Below the pieces are notes generated by a model. That model was not told the origin of the DNA, searched no databases, and was given only the letters and a program-made list of their open reading frames with translations. A stretch of 64,000 nt of DNA from Vicinamibacteria bacterium (GTDB taxonomy: Bacteria > Acidobacteriota > Vicinamibacteria > Fen-336 > CBDFGD01). The DNA lies in assembly GCA_965246965.1 (NCBI GenBank), contig CBDFGD010000001.1, forward strand, positions 516,705-580,704, in the 5' to 3' direction. Of the stretch, positions 3,263-13,428 are shown piece after piece. Numbering within the stretch: position 1 is the first letter of the stretch; every line of letters starts with the position of its first letter. The position numbers and the translations under genes are program-made.

Positions 3263-3337
3263 GGGCGGAGCCGGAAGGCTAGCACGGCGCCGCCGTTACA
3301 ATGCGAGGCCGTGGCGTGACCAGGTGACGATGAGCAG

Positions 3338-3535
3338 GCCACAGAGACGCAGAGACGCAGAGAACGGCGGGTGCCGGTGACTAGCCATCCCGATCGGGGC
3401 CAGCTCGACGAACCTGGAGCTGCGCAGCCGCGGAGCCCCGGAGGGCTCGAAGATGCTGACCAACCGAGATCAGAGTCGGCAGTTACCTAGGGTTGCAGTT
3501 TCTCTGTGCCTCCTTGCCTCTGTGGCTTCCGTTGG
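3338..3535. repeat. Inverted pair of CACAGAG-type repeats in a divergent intergenic region
   Basis: CCACAGAGACGCAGAGACGCAGAG (about 3339) and CTCTGTGCCTCCTTGCCTCTGTGG (about 3502). Confidence 0.7.
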
Positions 3536-4642: not shown

Positions 4643-5430
4643 GCGAGTCGCCGCGCAGCGTTGCCGGCTGGGCCAATCCTGGATGGCTCGTAGGGGCGAT
4701 GGTGGGCCTCATCGCCGTCGAGCTGAACCTGTTCTCCCTCGTTTCCTATTGGGGAGATCGAGCACTTTGGGTTCCGATCATCGCGGTGTCGGGTTCTCTG
4801 CTCTGGCTGACTCGATTGCGTCCGGCGCTCATCGCTGGGGCGGTATTGTTTGCGGCTCTGTGGCTCACGGTCGTCTTCACCCCTCTCACGAAGTGGCTGG
4901 CGCGGGATCTCGTCAGGCGCGACGCTCTGGTCGACGCCGACGCCATCTACGTCCTGGCTTCGAGCATCCAGAGAGACGGGGACCTCACGAGCTCGGCGAT
5001 GAGCCGACTCTTGCACGGCTTCGAGCTACTGGCCTCGGAGAAGGCGCCTCGGCTGATCCTCGCCGATCTGGCCGAGCCGAGTCCCTCGTATGAACCCACG
5101 GCTCGCCGGATGATGGCGAGCCTCCGGATCGACGGCGAGCTGATCGTGCTCGGACCCGTCCGACGTACGAGGGACGAAGCGGTGGCCGTGGCCGCGCTCT
5201 TTCGGGAGCGAAGCTTCGAGCGGCTGATCCTCGTGACGTCGCCCACTCACTCGAGAAGGGCGAGCGCCAGCTTCGAACGGGAGGGGCTCACGGTACTGTC
5301 ATCGCCCTCTCGCGAGACGAAGTGGGACCTCGAGACGCTCCGGAAGCACGACGATCGGGTGGCGGGCTTCGGCTCCGTGGTGCACGAGCGCGTCGGCCTG
5401 CTCTTCTACCGCATGCGGGGCTGGATCTAG
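4639..5430 (+). CDS. YdcF/DUF218 family membrane protein
   Basis: N-terminal TM helices, DAIYVLA, RTRDEA, LVTSPTHSRRA, HERVG; GTGA overlap with the upstream gene. Confidence 0.85.
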   Translation: MSESPRSVAGWANPGWLVGAMVGLIAVELNLFSLVSYWGDRALWVPIIAVSGSLLWLTRLRPALIAGAVLFAALWLTVVFTPLTKWLARDLVRRDALVDADAIYVLASSIQRDGDLTSSAMSRLLHGFELLASEKAPRLILADLAEPSPSYEPTARRMMASLRIDGELIVLGPVRRTRDEAVAVAALFRERSFERLILVTSPTHSRRASASFEREGLTVLSSPSRETKWDLETLRKHDDRVAGFGSVVHERVGLLFYRMRGWI

Positions 5431-5454
5431 CGTCCACCTCCGGAGTCGCGGCCA

Positions 5455-5502
5455 CAAACGGAAGCCACAGAGGCACGGAGGCCACTGAGCACGCACAGAG
5501 GA
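5455..5502. repeat. CACAGAG-type repeat
   Basis: AACGGAAGCCACAGAGGCACGGAGGCCACTGAGCACGCACAGAG; near reverse complement of the copy at about 3502-3533. Confidence 0.7.
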
Positions 5503-5647
5503 ACGGCAAGCCCCGATCGGTGGCCATCCGGATCGAGAGGCTTGTGGAGGAGAGCGAGTGGTTCCGTCGCTAAGCGTCGAACTCTCATTGGTGTTGGAGG
5601 GCGATCAGTAGCTGACGTGAATAAGGTCAGCGCCCCGATGGGGAACG

Positions 5648-6100
5648 TCAGGACGCCAGCGATCTCGCGGCGAAGAGCAGCGCGGCGACCGCCGCGTGGA
5701 GCGCGTGCCCCGCCATTCAAAGCGGACAGGGCTCCTTGAGCACCACGACAAGCGCGTAGATGAGGTAGCCGCCCACCACCAGGCTGCCGAGCGCTACGAC
5801 CAGGAACCCCATCGGGACGACGAGCGTCCCCGACGCGAGCCAGTAGCCCGCGAGGGCGAATAGGGCGACGACCCAGAGGACCCCGACCACGACGTTGGGA
5901 GCCCCGGCGAAGAGCCGCGCGTAGGGGGTCTCGACCACGATCGCACAGCTCGACGTGTCGGCCCCGCACGCGTTGAACAGCGCGGAGAGTCTGCTGCGCA
6001 GTCCGGGGCAGCACTTCAGCACGAGGCTGGCGAAGTAGACGTTGATCAGGAGCGCTGGGACCGACAGCGCGATCAGCGCCAGGGCCAGGCCGACGACCAT
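5648..6100 (-). CDS. Vitamin K epoxide reductase (VKOR) family protein, probable selenoprotein (CxxU, in-frame TGA at 5717-5719)
   Basis: Loop cysteines CGADTSSC, then VVETPYARLFAGAPN and TM helices. Continues ...KEPCPL-TGA-MAGHALHAAVAALLFAARSLAS-stop (5648), which completes the VKOR CxxC...H helix. Confidence 0.8.
5668..5716 (-). promoter_or_regulatory. Candidate bacterial SECIS element
   Basis: After UGA: stem CGCGGC-[GGUC]-GCCGCG with the loop starting 27 nt downstream; lower stem GGCGGGGCA/UGCUCUUCGCC. Confidence 0.7.
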
Positions 6101-6729
6101 CAGAAACGCAGCGCGAGGGTGCGGTTCTCGGCCTGGAGGAACAGCTCGACCTCGGCCTCGTCGATTCGCACGACCTCGATTCCGTCGAACACGTCCCCCT
6201 CCCTCACGAGCCGGCCGCTCACGATGGCCACGGGGCCCCCGTCCCGCACGGTGATCGCTTCGAGGCGCAGCTGCTCGGGCTCGGACGGCGGCGGGGTGTC
6301 CAGGTTGCCTCGGGCCGTCGCTGCCGGCTTCGGGTCGGGCTCCTCATTATCTGAGCCGGAGCCCGGCTCGCCCGACGCGTTCGCGATTCCGGCCGGGACT
6401 ATCGCAGGCGGAACCACCGCGAGATCGCCCGGTAGGACGGTGGGGCCATCCGGTGTGCGAGCCGAGCGGCCCTCGGCGGCGGGCCGATCGCTTCCAGCCT
6501 GCCCGGCGGCAACGGTGGGTTTGGCGGGAACGGGCTCGGCGACGTCCCTCGTCCACCACCAGGCGGCCACGCCCAGGAGCAGGACGCCGATCGAGGCGGC
6601 TCCGACCAGCGAGCCGCTGACGCCGCGACGGCGGCCATCGATGCTCCCGGCGCCGACGATCAGCATCCCCGTTTTCGGAGCTCGCTTCTCCTTGTTGAGC
6701 TTGTTGAGGGCGTCGAAGATGACGCTCAC
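6100..6729 (-). CDS. ExeB/GspB-like protein
   Basis: MSVIFDALNKL N-terminus, single TM, Pro-rich linker, C-terminal LRLEAI...AIVSGRLVREGD..DG..V..I; overlaps the exeA-like stop. Confidence 0.75.
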   Translation of the reverse strand: MSVIFDALNKLNKEKRAPKTGMLIVGAGSIDGRRRGVSGSLVGAASIGVLLLGVAAWWWTRDVAEPVPAKPTVAAGQAGSDRPAAEGRSARTPDGPTVLPGDLAVVPPAIVPAGIANASGEPGSGSDNEEPDPKPAATARGNLDTPPPSEPEQLRLEAITVRDGGPVAIVSGRLVREGDVFDGIEVVRIDEAEVELFLQAENRTLALRF

Positions 6730-8245
6730 GGTTCCCCCGTGCTCAGACGAGGGGCGGATATGCCCCGCGCGCATACAGGGCCATCAGGGTCCGCTCGCCC
6801 ACGAGGCCGTCGGGCGCCAGCTCGGCGTCGTCCTGAAAGCGCGTCACAGCAGTCTGGAGGTCGATGCCCTCCTCCAGGTAGCCGAGTCGGTCCAGCGACT
6901 GCCTCCCAGGTGGCACTTTGCGCCGGGTCGCCGGCCGCCGCCACGGCGTCGTAGTCGTGCCAAAGAAACACCGCGCGGCGGGTCCAGAGCCGATCGAGCT
7001 CGTCGAGCTTGACCCATCGGGCCGTGTCGTCGGCCCCGACCACTCGGGTGCTGTCGCCCTCGATCGAGAGCAGCGCCACGAAGGAGGTCTCGGGTCGGGC
7101 CGGGTGGAACATCTCGAGAATCACGGGCAGGTCGATCCTGCGGAGCGCATCGAGGTGAGTCCGCAGTTCCGTGCGCTGTGTCGGGCGCTGCTGCCACTGC
7201 TCCCCGACGGCGCGAACCGCGGCCTGGTAGGACTGCGGGCCGGCCTGCTCACGAACCAGCGGCTCGAGCGGCTCGGTCGCTGGGCCGGTCGCCGCGCGAG
7301 CAGCGGCAGGAGACGAGGGGGCGGATCTTGGCGCGACTTGCCGCTCTTCGTCCGGCGATCGCCCCCACAGAGCCACGCCGGCGATCAGCACAGTGAGTCC
7401 CGCAGCCACGACCGCTCGTGTGGGGAAGCGGCGGAGCGGCATCCCACCCTGCACCTCGCTCGAGGCTCGGGTCACGAGGGCAGCGTCGATGACACGTGTC
7501 CCGTCGACGTAGCCGGCCAGCAGAGCGCGGTCGGCGATCAGGTTGATCACCCGCGGGATACCGTGCGAGGCGCGATGCACGGCCGAGTGAGCCGTGGAGG
7601 TGAACTCGACCTTGCCGGCGCCCCCGGCGACGCGCAGGCGGTGGACCACATAGTCCTCGGTCTCGGCACGGTTCAGGGGAGTGATGTGGTACCAGGCCGT
7701 CACCCGCTGAGCCAGCTGGCGCAGCTCGGGGCGAGCGAGTATCTCCCGAAGCTCGGATTGACCCATCAGCACGATCGTCAGCAGCTTCTCGGTGTCGGTC
7801 TCGAGGTTCGAGATCAGGCGGATCTGCTCGAGGACCTCCGGCGAGAGGTCCTGCGCCTCGTCGATCAACAGCAGCACGTTGCGGTCGCGGCGCCGTGTGT
7901 CGAGTAGGAACTCCGAGAGCGCGTCGATCTGGTCCTTGAGCGAGACACCCGCCGCCTCGATGTGGAGATCGTCGAGGATCGAGCGCAGCAGCTCGACCGC
8001 GGTCAGTGCCGGGTAGAGGACGACAGCGGTGGCCGTCTCGTCGTCGATCTGCTGAGAAACGAGCGCGCCAGCGTCGTCTTGCCGGTTCCGACCTCGCCGG
8101 TGATCACGACGAAGCCCCCGCGCTCTCGTCGGCCGAACTCCAGGTGGGCGAAGGCCTCGGCGTGGCGCGCAGAGGGGTAGAGGAATTTGGGGTCCGGCGT
8201 CAGATTGAAGGGCTTCTCGGAGAAGCCGTAGTGATCGGCGTACAC
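6726..8245 (-). CDS. ExeA/GspA-like AAA ATPase with C-terminal peptidoglycan-binding domain (frameshifts at about 8055 and 6905)
   Basis: YGFSEKPFNLTPDP, GEVGTGKT, IDEAQ, GQSEL, GIPRVIN; alternate frame gives FQ...LAPDGLVGERT (PG-binding motif). Confidence 0.88.
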
Positions 8246-8304
8246 TGCGAATCCTCGGGCGACATCGAGTATAGCACTCGCCACTTTTCGAGCCCGCGAG
8301 CGCG

Positions 8305-9520
8305 ATGAAGGAGATCCGCGTCACCGCAATGCGCCGCCTGAAGTCGATCTCCGCCAACCTCGCCCTGGGCCTCGCGGGATGCGTGCTGGCCGTGCTGCTG
8401 GCCGAGGCCGCGTTGCGCCTCTTCGACCCGATTCCGCAACGTCTCCGCGGCGACCTGCTCCAGTTGCCACGCGACATCCAGTACACCATCGAGAACACGC
8501 ACAATCCGAAGCTGGCGGATCGCATCGTCCACACCAAGAACGCGCTTGGCTTCCGTGGCCCGGAGCTGCCCTGGGAGCGCCGGGCGCTGGTCGGCTTCGC
8601 CATGGGCGGCAGCACGACCGAGTGCTACTACCTCGGCGACGGCCTCGACTGGCCGAACCGGATGGGGGAGAAGCTGAGGCTCGCGTTCCCCGGCTTCTGG
8701 ATCAACAACGCCGGGCTCGATGGCCACTCGACGTACGGCCACAGGCTGCTGCTGGAACAGCGCCTGCTGCGGCTCGAGCCGGACCTCATCCTGTTCCTGG
8801 TCGGCGCCAACGACATCGGTCGCGGTGATCTCGAGGCCTACGACGCGATCGATATGAGCGCGGCTTCGCGCGAGGCGAGGACGTCCCGTCTCACGAGGGC
8901 CGCTCGGCACAGCGCTCTCCTCTCGCTGCTGCTCAACGTGTGGCGGAGCCAAGAGGCGCGCTCGCGGGGCATGAGTCACGAAGCGCTGGATCTGGCCGCG
9001 ACGCCGACGCTGCCGTTTCGGGAGCAGGCGGTGCGCCGACTGCTGGCCGGTCACGGGCGGCTTCCTGCCCGACTACCGACGCCGGCTCGAGGCGCTCGTC
9101 GATGACGCCGCGCGAGGCGGAGCGCTCGCCGTGCTCGTGACCCAGCCCGCCCTCTTCGGCCCCGTCGTCGACGACGTGACCGGCGTCGATCTCGGTCTGA
9201 TCGCGATGGGAGACCACGGCTGGAACACCGGGCGCAAGTGGAACGGGGCGATGGCGTGGCGCATGTTCGAGCGCTACAACGACGTCACCCGCGATCTCGG
9301 ACATGAGCGCGGCGTGCCGGTCATCGACCTGGCGAAGCTGCTGCCCAAGAGCAGCCGGCTCTACTACGACACGCTGCACTTCTCGGCCGAGGGGGCCGAC
9401 GTCGTCGCGGGCGTCGTGGCGAGAGAGCTTTGTCCGATCCTGGCCGAGCGATTCCCAGACCGGCGCGGTGGGGATTGCTCGATACTGACGCCGCGAGCGG
9501 CGGCGGGAGGAGGAGCCTGA
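8305..9520 (+). CDS. SGNH/GDSL hydrolase family protein (frameshift at about 9060)
   Basis: GGSTT, NAGLDG, GAND; the C-terminal YYDTLHF lies in the second frame. Confidence 0.82.
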
Positions 9521-10594: not shown

Positions 10595-12379
10595 ATGTCG
10601 ACCCAAGAGCAACCGATCGGCAAGGTCCTGGCCGGCAAGTATCGAATCGAAGGCTTCCTGACGCAGGGAGGCATGGGCGCCGTCTACCGTGGCACCCACG
10701 AGATGCTCGGCCGCAAGGTCGCCATCAAGCTGATCAAGCCCGAGCTGGTCACCTCGAGCGAGGTCGTCGAGCGCTTCCTCCGCGAGGCGCGCTCGGCGAG
10801 CCAGCTGCACCACACGAATATCGTCGCGACCTACGACCTCGGGCAGGCCGAGGACGGCACCCTCTACATCGCTATGGAGCTGGTCGACGGCGAGAGTCTC
10901 AAGGAGGTCATCAAGGCGTCCGGCGCGATGGAGCCCGAGCGGATCGTTCGGCTGGGGAAGGGGATCGCGGCCGCCCTGGCGCTCGCGCATCGGCGCAACA
11001 TCGTGCATCGCGACCTCAAGCCTCAGAACATCGTCGTGTGCAGCGACGAGGACGGCAACGAGATTCCCAAGCTGCTCGACTTCGGAATCGCCAAGACGTT
11101 CGAGACAGACCAGGCGGCCCTCACGGCGACCGGAATGGTGATCGGGACGCCGCAGTACATGGCACCGGAGCAGGCGCAGGACGTAGATGCGCGCACCGAC
11201 CTCTACGCGCTCGGAATCATCCTGTACGAGATGATCGGTGGCCACGTCCCGTTCCGCGACACGTCGGTGCCGGCGCTGCTGGTCAAGCACATGCAGGCAG
11301 TCCCGCCGCCGCTGAAGGACCTGCGAGCCGACACGCCGCCGGGGCTCGAGGCTATCGTTCTACGTTGCCTCGAGAAGGACCCGGCTCGGCGGTTCCCGAC
11401 GGCCGACGCCATTTCGGAGGCGCTCGACAAGGCCCTCGACCCGGTTTTCGCGGCCGAGACGGCCCTGTCGGCGGCGGGAGCGGCGGCCGAAACGCTCGCC
11501 GCGCCGAGCCCGCCTCCACCCAGCTCGCCGCCGGCGCCGCTCGCTCAGCCCGAAGCAGGTCGGGACGTGACGCGCCCGCCCGTCCCCGTCGCGCCCCCCG
11601 CGACCGGTGCCCCGACACCCGCCGCCAGGGGTCGCGGCGGTCTCGCTCTCGGGATCGTGGCCGCCGTCCTCCTCTTGCTCCTCGTCGCCGGTTTCTTCGG
11701 CTCGCGTTTCTTCAGCGGGGAGCGAGCACTGGACACTCAGGCGAGCGCTGGCGCGGAGCCCCAGGGTGTGCCGGCGGCGGCCATTCCGGGCAATCCGGAC
11801 GCCCCATCCGGTGGAGCTGCCGACACCGGGGAACCCGGAGGGGTAGCGACATCGGCCGGCGCAGCCGCTCCCGGCGCCACGCAACCGGCGGCAGCGGCAC
11901 CCGTGACGGTCCCGCCTGCGACCACGACTCGGGTGCCCGAGGAGCCGGCGGTAGCCGACAACGCCACCGCCCCGGCCCCGCCCCCTCCGACACTGCCCGC
12001 CGTCCCGCGCGTCAGCCTCGAGTGCGAGGGCGTTCAGGATGCATGCGCCTCGTTGACGCACGCCCTGCAGTCCCGCTTCGATGGAGAAGGCATGCCCGTA
12101 GCGTCACCGCGGGTCGCCGATGTCTTCGTCGGCATACGTGCGGAGGAGATCGAGGCGCGCACCGAAAATCAGTTCGGCACGACCTTCGTAGTGCGAACCT
12201 ACTCGATCGAGGCGCGCGCCGAGAACGCGCGCAGCGGGATGATGGTGGCGATGCCGGCGCCCGCGACGTTCAACTTCGACGCGCGTTTCGGCCGCGACAA
12301 GCTCAACGAGCAGTCGCGGGTGTTCGCCGCCTCGGTTGTGGAGAAGGTCGCCGCCCACTGGGACAGGCAGGCTCAGTAG
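10595..12379 (+). CDS. Hanks-type Ser/Thr protein kinase with TM helix and C-terminal extracytoplasmic domain
   Basis: GGMGAVY, VAIK, HRDLKPQN, DFG, GTPQYMAPE. Confidence 0.95.
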   Translation: MSTQEQPIGKVLAGKYRIEGFLTQGGMGAVYRGTHEMLGRKVAIKLIKPELVTSSEVVERFLREARSASQLHHTNIVATYDLGQAEDGTLYIAMELVDGESLKEVIKASGAMEPERIVRLGKGIAAALALAHRRNIVHRDLKPQNIVVCSDEDGNEIPKLLDFGIAKTFETDQAALTATGMVIGTPQYMAPEQAQDVDARTDLYALGIILYEMIGGHVPFRDTSVPALLVKHMQAVPPPLKDLRADTPPGLEAIVLRCLEKDPARRFPTADAISEALDKALDPVFAAETALSAAGAAAETLAAPSPPPPSSPPAPLAQPEAGRDVTRPPVPVAPPATGAPTPAARGRGGLALGIVAAVLLLLLVAGFFGSRFFSGERALDTQASAGAEPQGVPAAAIPGNPDAPSGGAADTGEPGGVATSAGAAAPGATQPAAAAPVTVPPATTTRVPEEPAVADNATAPAPPPPTLPAVPRVSLECEGVQDACASLTHALQSRFDGEGMPVASPRVADVFVGIRAEEIEARTENQFGTTFVVRTYSIEARAENARSGMMVAMPAPATFNFDARFGRDKLNEQSRVFAASVVEKVAAHWDRQAQ

Positions 12380-13428
12380 CCCGGAGCCAGCTCCCGTAGC
12401 GCCGTCACGGACAGCGCCCAGTTCACTCCGCTCGATACCGATCCGCCGTCCGGACCCTTGACGAAATCGCCTCCGACCACGAGTCCCACCACGTTTCCGT
12501 CGCGCGTGAACACCGGGCTGCCGCTCATCCCCGGCGTGATCCGCAGTCCGACCTCGAGGAAGCGCCCTTCGCGGACGTCGCCGACCACGTCCTCGCTCAG
12601 CCTCGCGCGCGGGCGCGCAGGGTCGGTCGCCGGCGCCGGGAAGCCGAACGCTGCGACGCGGCGTCCGCGCCGCAGCTCCCGGAGCTGCGCGGGTGGCGCG
12701 AGTCTCATCGGCACGGTCACGGCGTCGCCCGCCAGCCGCAGAAGTGCCACGTCGTTGCGGAAGCTGCCCGCCTCGTGCTCCGGATGGATCTCTGCGGAGG
12801 CGATCCGAACCCCGCGCCCGTCTCCGTCCGACAGCGCTGCGTAGGCGACCACCGCCGCTCCGGCGGCCACCGATCCGCGCTCCACCAGGACCAGTGCCAC
12901 GTGAGCGTTCGTCGCCAGAACGCCGTCGCTAGACACGGCGAACGCGGAGCCGACCGCCGTGCGGGCACCCTCCTGCTCGATGCTGAGGAGGTAGACGGAC
13001 CGGGCCGCGTCGGTCGCGGCCGCCTCGAAGCTCTCGACGGGACGTCCCATCCAGAGTGCGGCAGCGCCTGCCCCGGTCGCGACGATCAGCAGCCCTGCTG
13101 CGAGTCCCATCGGGCGGGAGCGGCCGGGCCCTCCGCGGTACTCCAGGAGCGGCGGACCGCCCACGCCGATCTGGTCGCCGTCGCGCAGTCGTGCACTCTC
13201 GACGCGCTCGCCGTTGACGAAGGTGCCATTGGTGGAGGAGAGGTCCCGAATCCACCAGGCGCCTTCTTCGTGCACAACCTCGGCGTGGCGGCCGCTCGAG
13301 GCCGGTCCCTCCTCGTCCGGGAGCACCAGGTCGCAGTCGCGACTGCGACCGACGGTGACCGATGGGCCCGGGAACGAGAACTCCTGGCTACGCCTCGGGC
13401 CCTCGAGGAACCGGAACCGGACGCTCAT
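12373..13428 (-). CDS. FHA domain - TM - trypsin-like serine protease fusion
   Basis: FHA motifs GR, SGRHA, STNGT; protease triad TNAHV, NDVALL, GMSGSP. Confidence 0.9.
   Translation of the reverse strand: MSVRFRFLEGPRRSQEFSFPGPSVTVGRSRDCDLVLPDEEGPASSGRHAEVVHEEGAWWIRDLSSTNGTFVNGERVESARLRDGDQIGVGGPPLLEYRGGPGRSRPMGLAAGLLIVATGAGAAALWMGRPVESFEAAATDAARSVYLLSIEQEGARTAVGSAFAVSSDGVLATNAHVALVLVERGSVAAGAAVVAYAALSDGDGRGVRIASAEIHPEHEAGSFRNDVALLRLAGDAVTVPMRLAPPAQLRELRRGRRVAAFGFPAPATDPARPRARLSEDVVGDVREGRFLEVGLRITPGMSGSPVFTRDGNVVGLVVGGDFVKGPDGGSVSSGVNWALSVTALRELAPGY

Follow-up and report, generated by a model that had tools for sequence, protein, structure and literature searches.

A candidate CxxU-type VKOR selenoprotein of soil Acidobacteria and Rokubacteria/Methylomirabilota

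We analyzed a 64,000-nucleotide stretch of the genome of a Vicinamibacteria bacterium (GenBank assembly GCA_965246965.1, contig CBDFGD010000001.1, positions 516,705 to 580,704), hereafter the window, and in particular a small gene on its minus strand, at 5648..6100, that belongs to the vitamin K epoxide reductase (VKOR) family. An earlier note on this DNA had proposed that the gene encodes a selenocysteine (Sec)-using VKOR that annotation truncates at an in-frame TGA. Our analysis supports this proposal, and we conclude that the gene very probably encodes a genuine Sec-containing VKOR with a CxxU active site. The evidence consists of the position of the TGA in a catalytic Cys column, the coding extension beyond it, a conserved hairpin in that extension, the Sec machinery of the genome, and public records of relatives that end at 127 amino acids. 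The family, the fold, the column homology, the conservation of the TGA, extension and hairpin, and the Sec machinery were computed directly; selenium insertion at residue 128 is what these sequence comparisons point to.

The called open reading frame (5717..6100, minus strand) encodes 127 amino acids with the C-terminus ...VLKEPCPL, followed by the TGA at 5719-5717. Read past this codon, the frame continues as MAGHALHAAVAALLFAARSLAS up to a second TGA at 5650-5648. With the first TGA translated as Sec (U), the full coding sequence comprises 150 residues, M1 to S150 with U128, plus the terminal TGA. The 127-residue form matches the Pfam VKOR profile (PF07884; gathering score 27.5) with 34.4 bits over profile positions 5-118 of 134, and the read-through form matches it with 42.2 bits over positions 5-132. 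As the coverage of the profile grows from 118 to 132 only when the TGA is read through, the extension corresponds to the missing end of the VKOR domain. A profile search of the PDB returned the Synechococcus VKOR structures 4nv6, 4nv2 and 3kp9 (E 1.5e-7 to 3e-6). In this alignment the CpLC of the query lies opposite the active-site CMYC, with the TGA as the second Cys, and C45 lies opposite residue 50 of the loop pair. The active-site motif in the DNA is C-P-L-TGA; taken literally the second Cys is absent, and the motif is of the CxxC type only if the TGA stands for Sec. The proposed Sec128 (5717..5719, minus strand) would thus occupy the second position of a catalytic C125-P-L-U128 motif. Its partner Cys125 (5726..5728, minus strand) is invariant, encoded by TGT in 27 and TGC in 40 of 67 distinct sequences. 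The loop cysteine pair C45...C52 (CGADTSSC; 5945..5968, minus strand), equivalent to the electron-shuttling pair of VKORs, is invariant in a 50-sequence alignment. The earlier note had placed the TGA at the second Cys of the VKOR CxxC, had continued the frame to a second stop at 5648 to gain a final helix, and had picked out the CGADTSSC pair. All three readings hold, the first at the coordinates and in the PDB alignment, and the second in the structure prediction described below.

The 22-codon extension 3' of the UGA (5651..5716, minus strand; residues 129-150, with G131, H132 and H135 conserved) behaves as coding sequence, a property that the earlier note had named as a check. Among the relatives described below it is 21 codons long in 50, 22 in 10 and 23 in 7 distinct proteins, which together make up 67 of 68, and there are zero indels in the 67 distinct sequences. 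The exception is locus L026 (3382-4128), where the second stop is lost and the extension runs to 248 codons; this may be an assembly error or a decaying copy. Variation is dominated by the third codon position: mean entropies at positions 1/2/3 are 0.63/0.48/1.14 bits downstream of the TGA, outside the hairpin, and 0.42/0.43/0.93 bits in the 40 codons upstream of it. The second stop is TGA in 88 of the 93 loci with a visible gene end. AlphaFold2, run on the 50-sequence alignment, gave a model with a predicted local distance difference test score (pLDDT) of 90.9, a predicted template modeling score of 0.85, and transmembrane helices at 2-28, 67-90, 97-120 and 126-149. The last of these contains the extension and is the fourth transmembrane helix (TM4), and its final two 10-residue blocks have a pLDDT of 96. 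The ten best Foldseek matches in the PDB were all VKORs (human, Takifugu and Synechococcus), with query TM-scores of 0.50-0.63 and a probability of 1.0, at E-values of only 0.017-0.15. Judged by codon variation and the predicted structure, the 21-23 codons 3' of the UGA are translated and form the fourth transmembrane helix of a VKOR fold.

The TGA itself is conserved. Our comparison comprised 96 loci, the window plus 95 from metagenome-assembled genomes (MAGs) and metagenomes, with 82 distinct gene sequences. They were collected from a six-frame search of 61 same-order genomes, which returned three close homologues at 61-69% identity; a survey of species-representative genomes, which yielded 12 loci from Rokubacteria/Methylomirabilota and Acidobacteria MAGs; and a metagenome scan, from which the best 80 of 153 relatives were retained. 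Three of the 95 (L028, L034 and L035) are repeats of L012-L014. Locus L036 carries a frameshift upstream of CPL-TGA (at about 3300-3400), which may likewise reflect an assembly error or a decaying copy. TGA occupies the second Cys position of the CxxC in 96/96 loci, and the three close same-order homologues have one TGA each, all at the Sec column. The five distant VKORs in the 61-genome set have CKLC or CRLC at the active site. The homologues with TGA or Cys at this column that the earlier note had suggested looking for were thus both found.

Public protein collections contain many relatives that stop at the same point. A collection of 5.8 billion proteins gave 293 matches at E <= 1e-3, and among the 120 matches listed 116 end in PCPL and 1 in PCPV. 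These VKOR relatives end at 127 amino acids and, where named, are called 'hypothetical protein' or 'uncharacterized membrane protein'. A HMMER search of 1.84 billion cluster representatives (50%-identity library) returned 171 proteins at E <= 1e-3. Among the best 150 of these, nine stop exactly at C-x-L, and their spread over 36-63% identity to the query indicates several divergent truncated clusters. A further 124 of the best 150 have CxxC followed by a tail (P0137, for example, is a Cys form), and the remainder are fragments, frameshifted, or long repeat proteins. Taken across these collections and loci, the Sec-VKOR variant appears to occur in many soil bacteria.

The Cys forms provide the natural counterpart. 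Two close ones, P0012 and P0013 (65-66% identity), read CPLC-MTGHALHAAIAALL and have a total length of 149-151 amino acids. Across 401 genomes sampled evenly from the phylum, the TGA form was present in the window's genome only, and 26 other genomes had stand-alone Cys forms (E <= 1e-10). We examined 24 of 27 Cys loci from the phylum, leaving out two partial matches (L138 and L145) and a duplicate of L122 (L146). All 24 have TGC or TGT at the column, a tail of similar length, and a His at +4; the GC hairpin is absent from the DNA of all 24. In P0012 and P0013 an Ile replaces the Val whose codon supplies three of the four hairpin loop bases, and as a result the second G of the loop must differ. 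For these two close Cys forms the apparent loss of the hairpin is read solely from this Val-to-Ile change.

The proposed Sec insertion sequence (SECIS) is an apical hairpin, CGCGGC-GGUC-GCCGCG, at 5681..5696 on the minus strand (read 5696-5681, loop 5690-5687). Its stem begins 20 nt past the UGA and its loop opens with the 27th nt, a spacing of 26 nt; the earlier note had given the same loop position. A 14-nt core, GCGGCGGTCGCCGC, lies at the identical offset in 93 of the 94 loci whose sequence extends far enough. RNAalifold, applied to 61 distinct 69-nt sequences, retains a 6-bp hairpin in which five pairs are invariant and the GGUC loop is invariant in 61/61; the sixth, outermost pair is CG in 55, UA in 2, UG in 1 and CA in 3. 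The loop sequence of E. coli fdhF is GGUC. At codons +8 to +11 (GCG GCG GTC GCC) the 67 distinct sequences show no variation at any of the three codon positions, and the entropy at codon +12 is 0.38 bits. Outside the hairpin, the 16 conserved four-fold codons have a mean of 1.16 bits, with a single one at zero. Frozen in these alignments even at four-fold degenerate sites, the hairpin is evidently under constraint at the RNA level. It also fits the bSECIS model as given in PMC13188914 (a loop of 3-9 nt with G in its first two positions, a stem of 4-16 bp, a distance of 16-37 nt to the UGA, and a minimum free energy of <= -7.5 kcal/mol), having a 4-nt GGUC loop, a 6-bp stem, a 26-nt spacing and a minimum free energy of -10.8 kcal/mol.

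The longer lower stem that the earlier note had drawn beneath this hairpin is not conserved, and we dropped it. A 3-bp extension with a bulge forms pairs in only 42-61 of the 61 sequences, being unpaired in up to 19, and shows no covariation. When the whole genome was scanned for open frames in which a GGTC-loop hairpin lies behind a TGA, 73 candidates emerged, almost all of them off-frame noise of a GC-rich genome, and the scan was abandoned as a selenoprotein finder for that reason. One candidate, at G000:C2:3452538 on the plus strand of the window's genome, has a TGA in a long open frame (756 codons before and 275 after) with a 6-bp GGTC-loop hairpin at 17 nt, and is either chance or another selenoprotein gene. 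An identical stretch at seven G000:C2 places (2056263, 2394234, 3827990, 4007647, 4463402, 5096562 and others) gave the same spurious frame and is a multi-copy element.

The window's genome (5.75 Mb, 98% complete) has the Sec machinery, which the earlier note had listed for checking. It encodes SelA (453 bits), SelB with its winged-helix domain, and a tRNA-Sec (74.4 bits; anticodon TCA, ARAGORN). Its selD (G000:C2:2944707, L020) itself carries an in-frame TGA at the active-site position (...ACAG*ASKLG...). About 30 nt beyond this TGA lies a hairpin, GCCCA-GGUCC-UGGGC, whose loop also contains GGUC. SelA is present in 58 of the 61 genomes of the order. The three relatives that carry the gene (G007, G049 and G054) are draft bins, with SelB in 3/3, a full SelA in 2/3 (G049 and G054) and a tRNA-Sec above the cut-off in 1/3.

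Several observations weigh against Sec insertion. In the draft bins just named, G007 has no SelA above the cut-off (its tRNA-Sec scores 72.8 bits), and G049 and G054 have no tRNA-Sec above the cut-off. At the Sec column, P0014 has Arg (CPLR) and the fragment P0200 has Trp (CPLW). Judged from the protein, CPLR is compatible with a CGA codon; CPLW looks as if called under a code in which TGA is Trp. The reads at 5717-5719, which the earlier note wanted checked, agree on TGA in so far as Logan contigs from three runs (X1-X3) show no difference across the site; these runs are one sample, probably the source of the assembly, so that this check is not independent. The contigs of a further run (X4) cover only short parts of the locus. 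Covariation in the hairpin is almost nil, both UA sequences being close relatives, and with five pairs that never vary and a sixth nearly fixed it is almost uninformative. The geometry is also easily matched in this 66% GC genome: among 74,444 sampled TGAs, 1.0% have, 16-37 nt downstream, a G[GU]NN tetraloop on a stem of at least 6 bp, and 72% are followed by the loosest geometry of the SECIS model. With 1-72% of genome TGAs passing, depending on strictness, geometry alone is weak evidence, and it is the conservation at synonymous sites that carries weight. Compared with shuffled sequences, the 69-nt stretch folds with unremarkable energy (z = -0.25). In a single sequence the hairpin thus shows no excess over chance; the excess comes from the comparison, with the TGA in 96/96 and the core in 93/94 loci. 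A Rfam scan of 5400-6200 at E <= 10 returned only a chance miRNA match. Finally, the E. coli SECIS, the only well-studied bacterial one, is described in PMC8659212 as a 17-nt stem-loop 11 nt after the UGA with an essential bulged U17 and with G23/U24 in the loop. The Sec-VKOR hairpin starts 20 nt out and has a perfect 6-bp stem with no bulge. Of the E. coli-type SECIS that the earlier note had recognized, the GGUC loop with its G and U stands, and the distance and the bulged U do not.

These points bear differently on the other explanations. If the TGA were a true stop, the product would have 127 residues and be a VKOR remnant of three helices that keeps one active-site Cys, and the hairpin would be a terminator, attenuator or other 3' element. 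Gene callers in all sources do end the protein at this TGA, and a GC hairpin shortly 3' of a TGA is a common arrangement in the window's genome. We nevertheless regard this explanation as improbable, because the 21-23 downstream codons stay in frame with no indels and vary mainly at the third position, because Pfam, the PDB alignment and AlphaFold2 all identify them as the VKOR TM4, and because the Cys-form relatives read straight into the same helix. In addition, the window sequence has no T-run after the hairpin, and a 127-residue product would be without the residue that attacks the substrate in human VKOR as described in PMC7895805.

The UGA could instead be read by other means, through near-cognate insertion of Trp, Cys or Arg or through a local or genome-wide change of code. 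The Trp of P0200, the Arg of P0014 and the lack of a detectable SelA in G007 would be in keeping with this. The same gene, however, ends at TGA in 88/93 loci, and the gene upstream also stops at TGA, which indicates that the code is unchanged and that any recoding is specific to the site. That site falls in a column of redox-active Cys, where Sec is usually found; it is followed at a fixed distance by a frozen SECIS-like hairpin, and the genome has the full Sec machinery, including a Sec-containing SelD. Readthrough without Sec is consequently an unlikely account. A faulty base call or misassembly in the window's genome, or a pseudogene of recent origin there, would need only the one base that separates TGA from TGC or TGT, and is effectively refuted by the TGA in 96/96 loci from many independent assemblies, the agreement of the three-run contigs and an otherwise intact, conserved gene.

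With Sec insertion as the preferred reading, the product would be a VKOR-family membrane thiol oxidoreductase, stand-alone and built of four helices, with a C125-P-L-U128 motif. SelB with Sec-tRNA(Sec) would bind the 16-nt GC hairpin with its GGUC loop 20 nt past the UGA, Sec would be inserted at UGA128, and 22 further codons would be translated as TM4 before termination at the ordinary UGA. Family membership suggests a quinone-coupled, disulfide-forming activity. By homology, electrons would pass from the dithiol of a periplasmic partner, presumably thioredoxin-like by analogy, to C45/C52, then to C125, to U128 and to a membrane quinone. The second CxxC cysteine of human VKOR, Cys135, attacks the epoxide substrate and the covalent intermediate is resolved by Cys132, the shuttle disulfide being Cys51-Cys132, as described in PMC7895805. 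DsbB Cys44, which contacts ubiquinone, is given as the counterpart of human VKOR Cys135 in PMC4555120. As U128 occupies the place of human Cys135, Sec would be the nucleophile that attacks the quinone. A selenolate is a better nucleophile and a better leaving group than a thiolate. On these grounds, quinone reduction by the Sec form may be faster or of lower potential.

The window's genome contains a second VKOR, a canonical one with CPLC, fused to a DsbA/thioredoxin-like domain with CPYC (G000:C2:2346685-2347065; L117 643-2007, minus strand). No DsbB gene was found in this genome, and the VKOR-DsbA fusion is therefore probably the housekeeping disulfide generator, which makes the Sec form a second, stand-alone paralogue. 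Tentatively, and with more doubt than conviction, we raise the idea that the Sec form is the first selenium-dependent membrane disulfide generator of the VKOR/DsbB class, in which the quinone is attacked by a selenolate. It would then constitute a separate, selenium-requiring route of oxidative folding or quinone reduction beside the housekeeping fusion in soil Acidobacteria and Rokubacteria/Methylomirabilota, and may be adapted by its selenolate to a quinone of low potential, low oxygen, or another substrate or direction than canonical VKORs.

The gene neighborhood did not point to a partner. Directly upstream lies a 224-residue gene of no known family (6100..6774, minus strand; 'GspB-like' only for the adjoining ATPase), whose TGA stop shares one base with the VKOR ATG and which has no Pfam or NCBIfam family above the cut-off. 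The NCBIfam scan contained no fitting model, the best being NF011480 with 18.4 bits (cut-off 120). Beyond it is a 629-residue AAA_22 ATPase (6726..8615, minus strand; Pfam AAA_22 52.7 bits) that is akin to the XrtA/PEP-CTERM-associated ATPase model, below its cut-off (TIGR03015, 183.9 bits vs 324.5). Across the 95 loci, a homologue of the 224-residue gene lies directly upstream of the Sec-VKOR in 24/95 and the ATPase is present in 18/95, in the Acidobacteria-type subgroup only. One Rokubacteria locus has unrelated neighbors (an MFS transporter, a thioesterase and a xanthine-dehydrogenase-like gene), and no conserved redox partner was found in the neighborhoods of the related loci. The intergenic region 3' of the VKOR gene contains a repeat of about 60 nt (5455-5520) with 44 matches in the genome at 71-100% identity, similar in appearance to repetitive extragenic palindromic elements, and the Logan contigs of several runs break or pile up there. 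Elsewhere in the window, at 12376-13428 on the minus strand, is a 351-residue protein with an FHA domain and a trypsin-like peptidase domain.

Both the enzyme family and the recoding mechanism are known, and we could not find a description of their combination. Among the papers listed, judged by title, literature searches turned up no VKOR selenoprotein, and they returned no paper that ties SECIS to VKOR or vitamin K epoxide in microbes; supplementary tables may list such a protein. The terms 'VKOR', 'vitamin K', 'DsbB' and 'epoxide' are absent from the main texts of PMC13188914, PMC13326102, PMC12013277, PMC9312934 and 10.1101/2022.07.06.499078, which cover selenoprotein reviews (2022 and 2026), BSepDB, deep-Sep and a 2022 preprint on new families. 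The terms 'selenocysteine', 'selenoprotein' and 'UGA' are absent from the text of the VKOR phylogeny paper PMC4555120. If the Sec reading is correct, an integral-membrane, quinone-coupled enzyme would join the selenoprotein families, among which formate dehydrogenases and soluble proteins with a thioredoxin fold now predominate. Human VKOR makes its covalent adduct with the substrate exactly at the position of the proposed Sec, as described in PMC7895805, and Sec there would amount to a natural Cys-to-Sec experiment, on a mechanism that is of medical interest because VKOR is the target of warfarin. Re-annotation would be possible for more than 100 public protein clusters that end at residue 127 and carry the names 'hypothetical' or 'uncharacterized membrane protein'. 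For the SelB of poorly studied soil phyla, the invariant GGUC hairpin would offer a compact, testable SECIS.

Among known systems, bacterial VKOR homologues such as Synechococcus VKOR (PDB 3kp9, 4nv2, 4nv5 and 4nv6) have in common with the Sec-VKOR the Pfam VKOR family, the four-helix bundle, the pair of loop cysteines and an active-site motif where TM4 begins. The Sec-VKOR differs in the proposed Sec in place of the second active-site Cys, in having no fused thioredoxin-like domain, and in its length of only 150 residues. DsbB is a functional analogue, a membrane quinone-dependent disulfide generator whose Cys44 corresponds to the Sec position going by PMC4555120; unlike DsbB, the Sec-VKOR has no DsbB Pfam match, and its only DsbB match in the PDB is at E 0.44. 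Human VKORC1 (PDB 6wv3 and related) gives the best structural matches and has Cys135 at the position of U128. Identity to it is 16-19%, and the protein described here is bacterial, would use Sec, and presumably acts on a respiratory quinone and not on vitamin K epoxide. The soluble CxxU/UxxC selenoproteins treated in PMC13188914 (DsbA-like, Trx-, Prx- and Grx-like) resemble it in the use of Sec for a redox Cys, in their abundant Cys homologues, and in a SECIS directly 3' of the UGA. That set, as described there, has a thioredoxin fold and is soluble or periplasmic, whereas the Sec-VKOR is predicted to be an integral-membrane helical bundle that would donate electrons to a quinone. Like the E. 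coli fdhF SECIS described in PMC8659212, its candidate SECIS is a hairpin directly 3' of the UGA, within the coding sequence, with G and U in a small apical loop.

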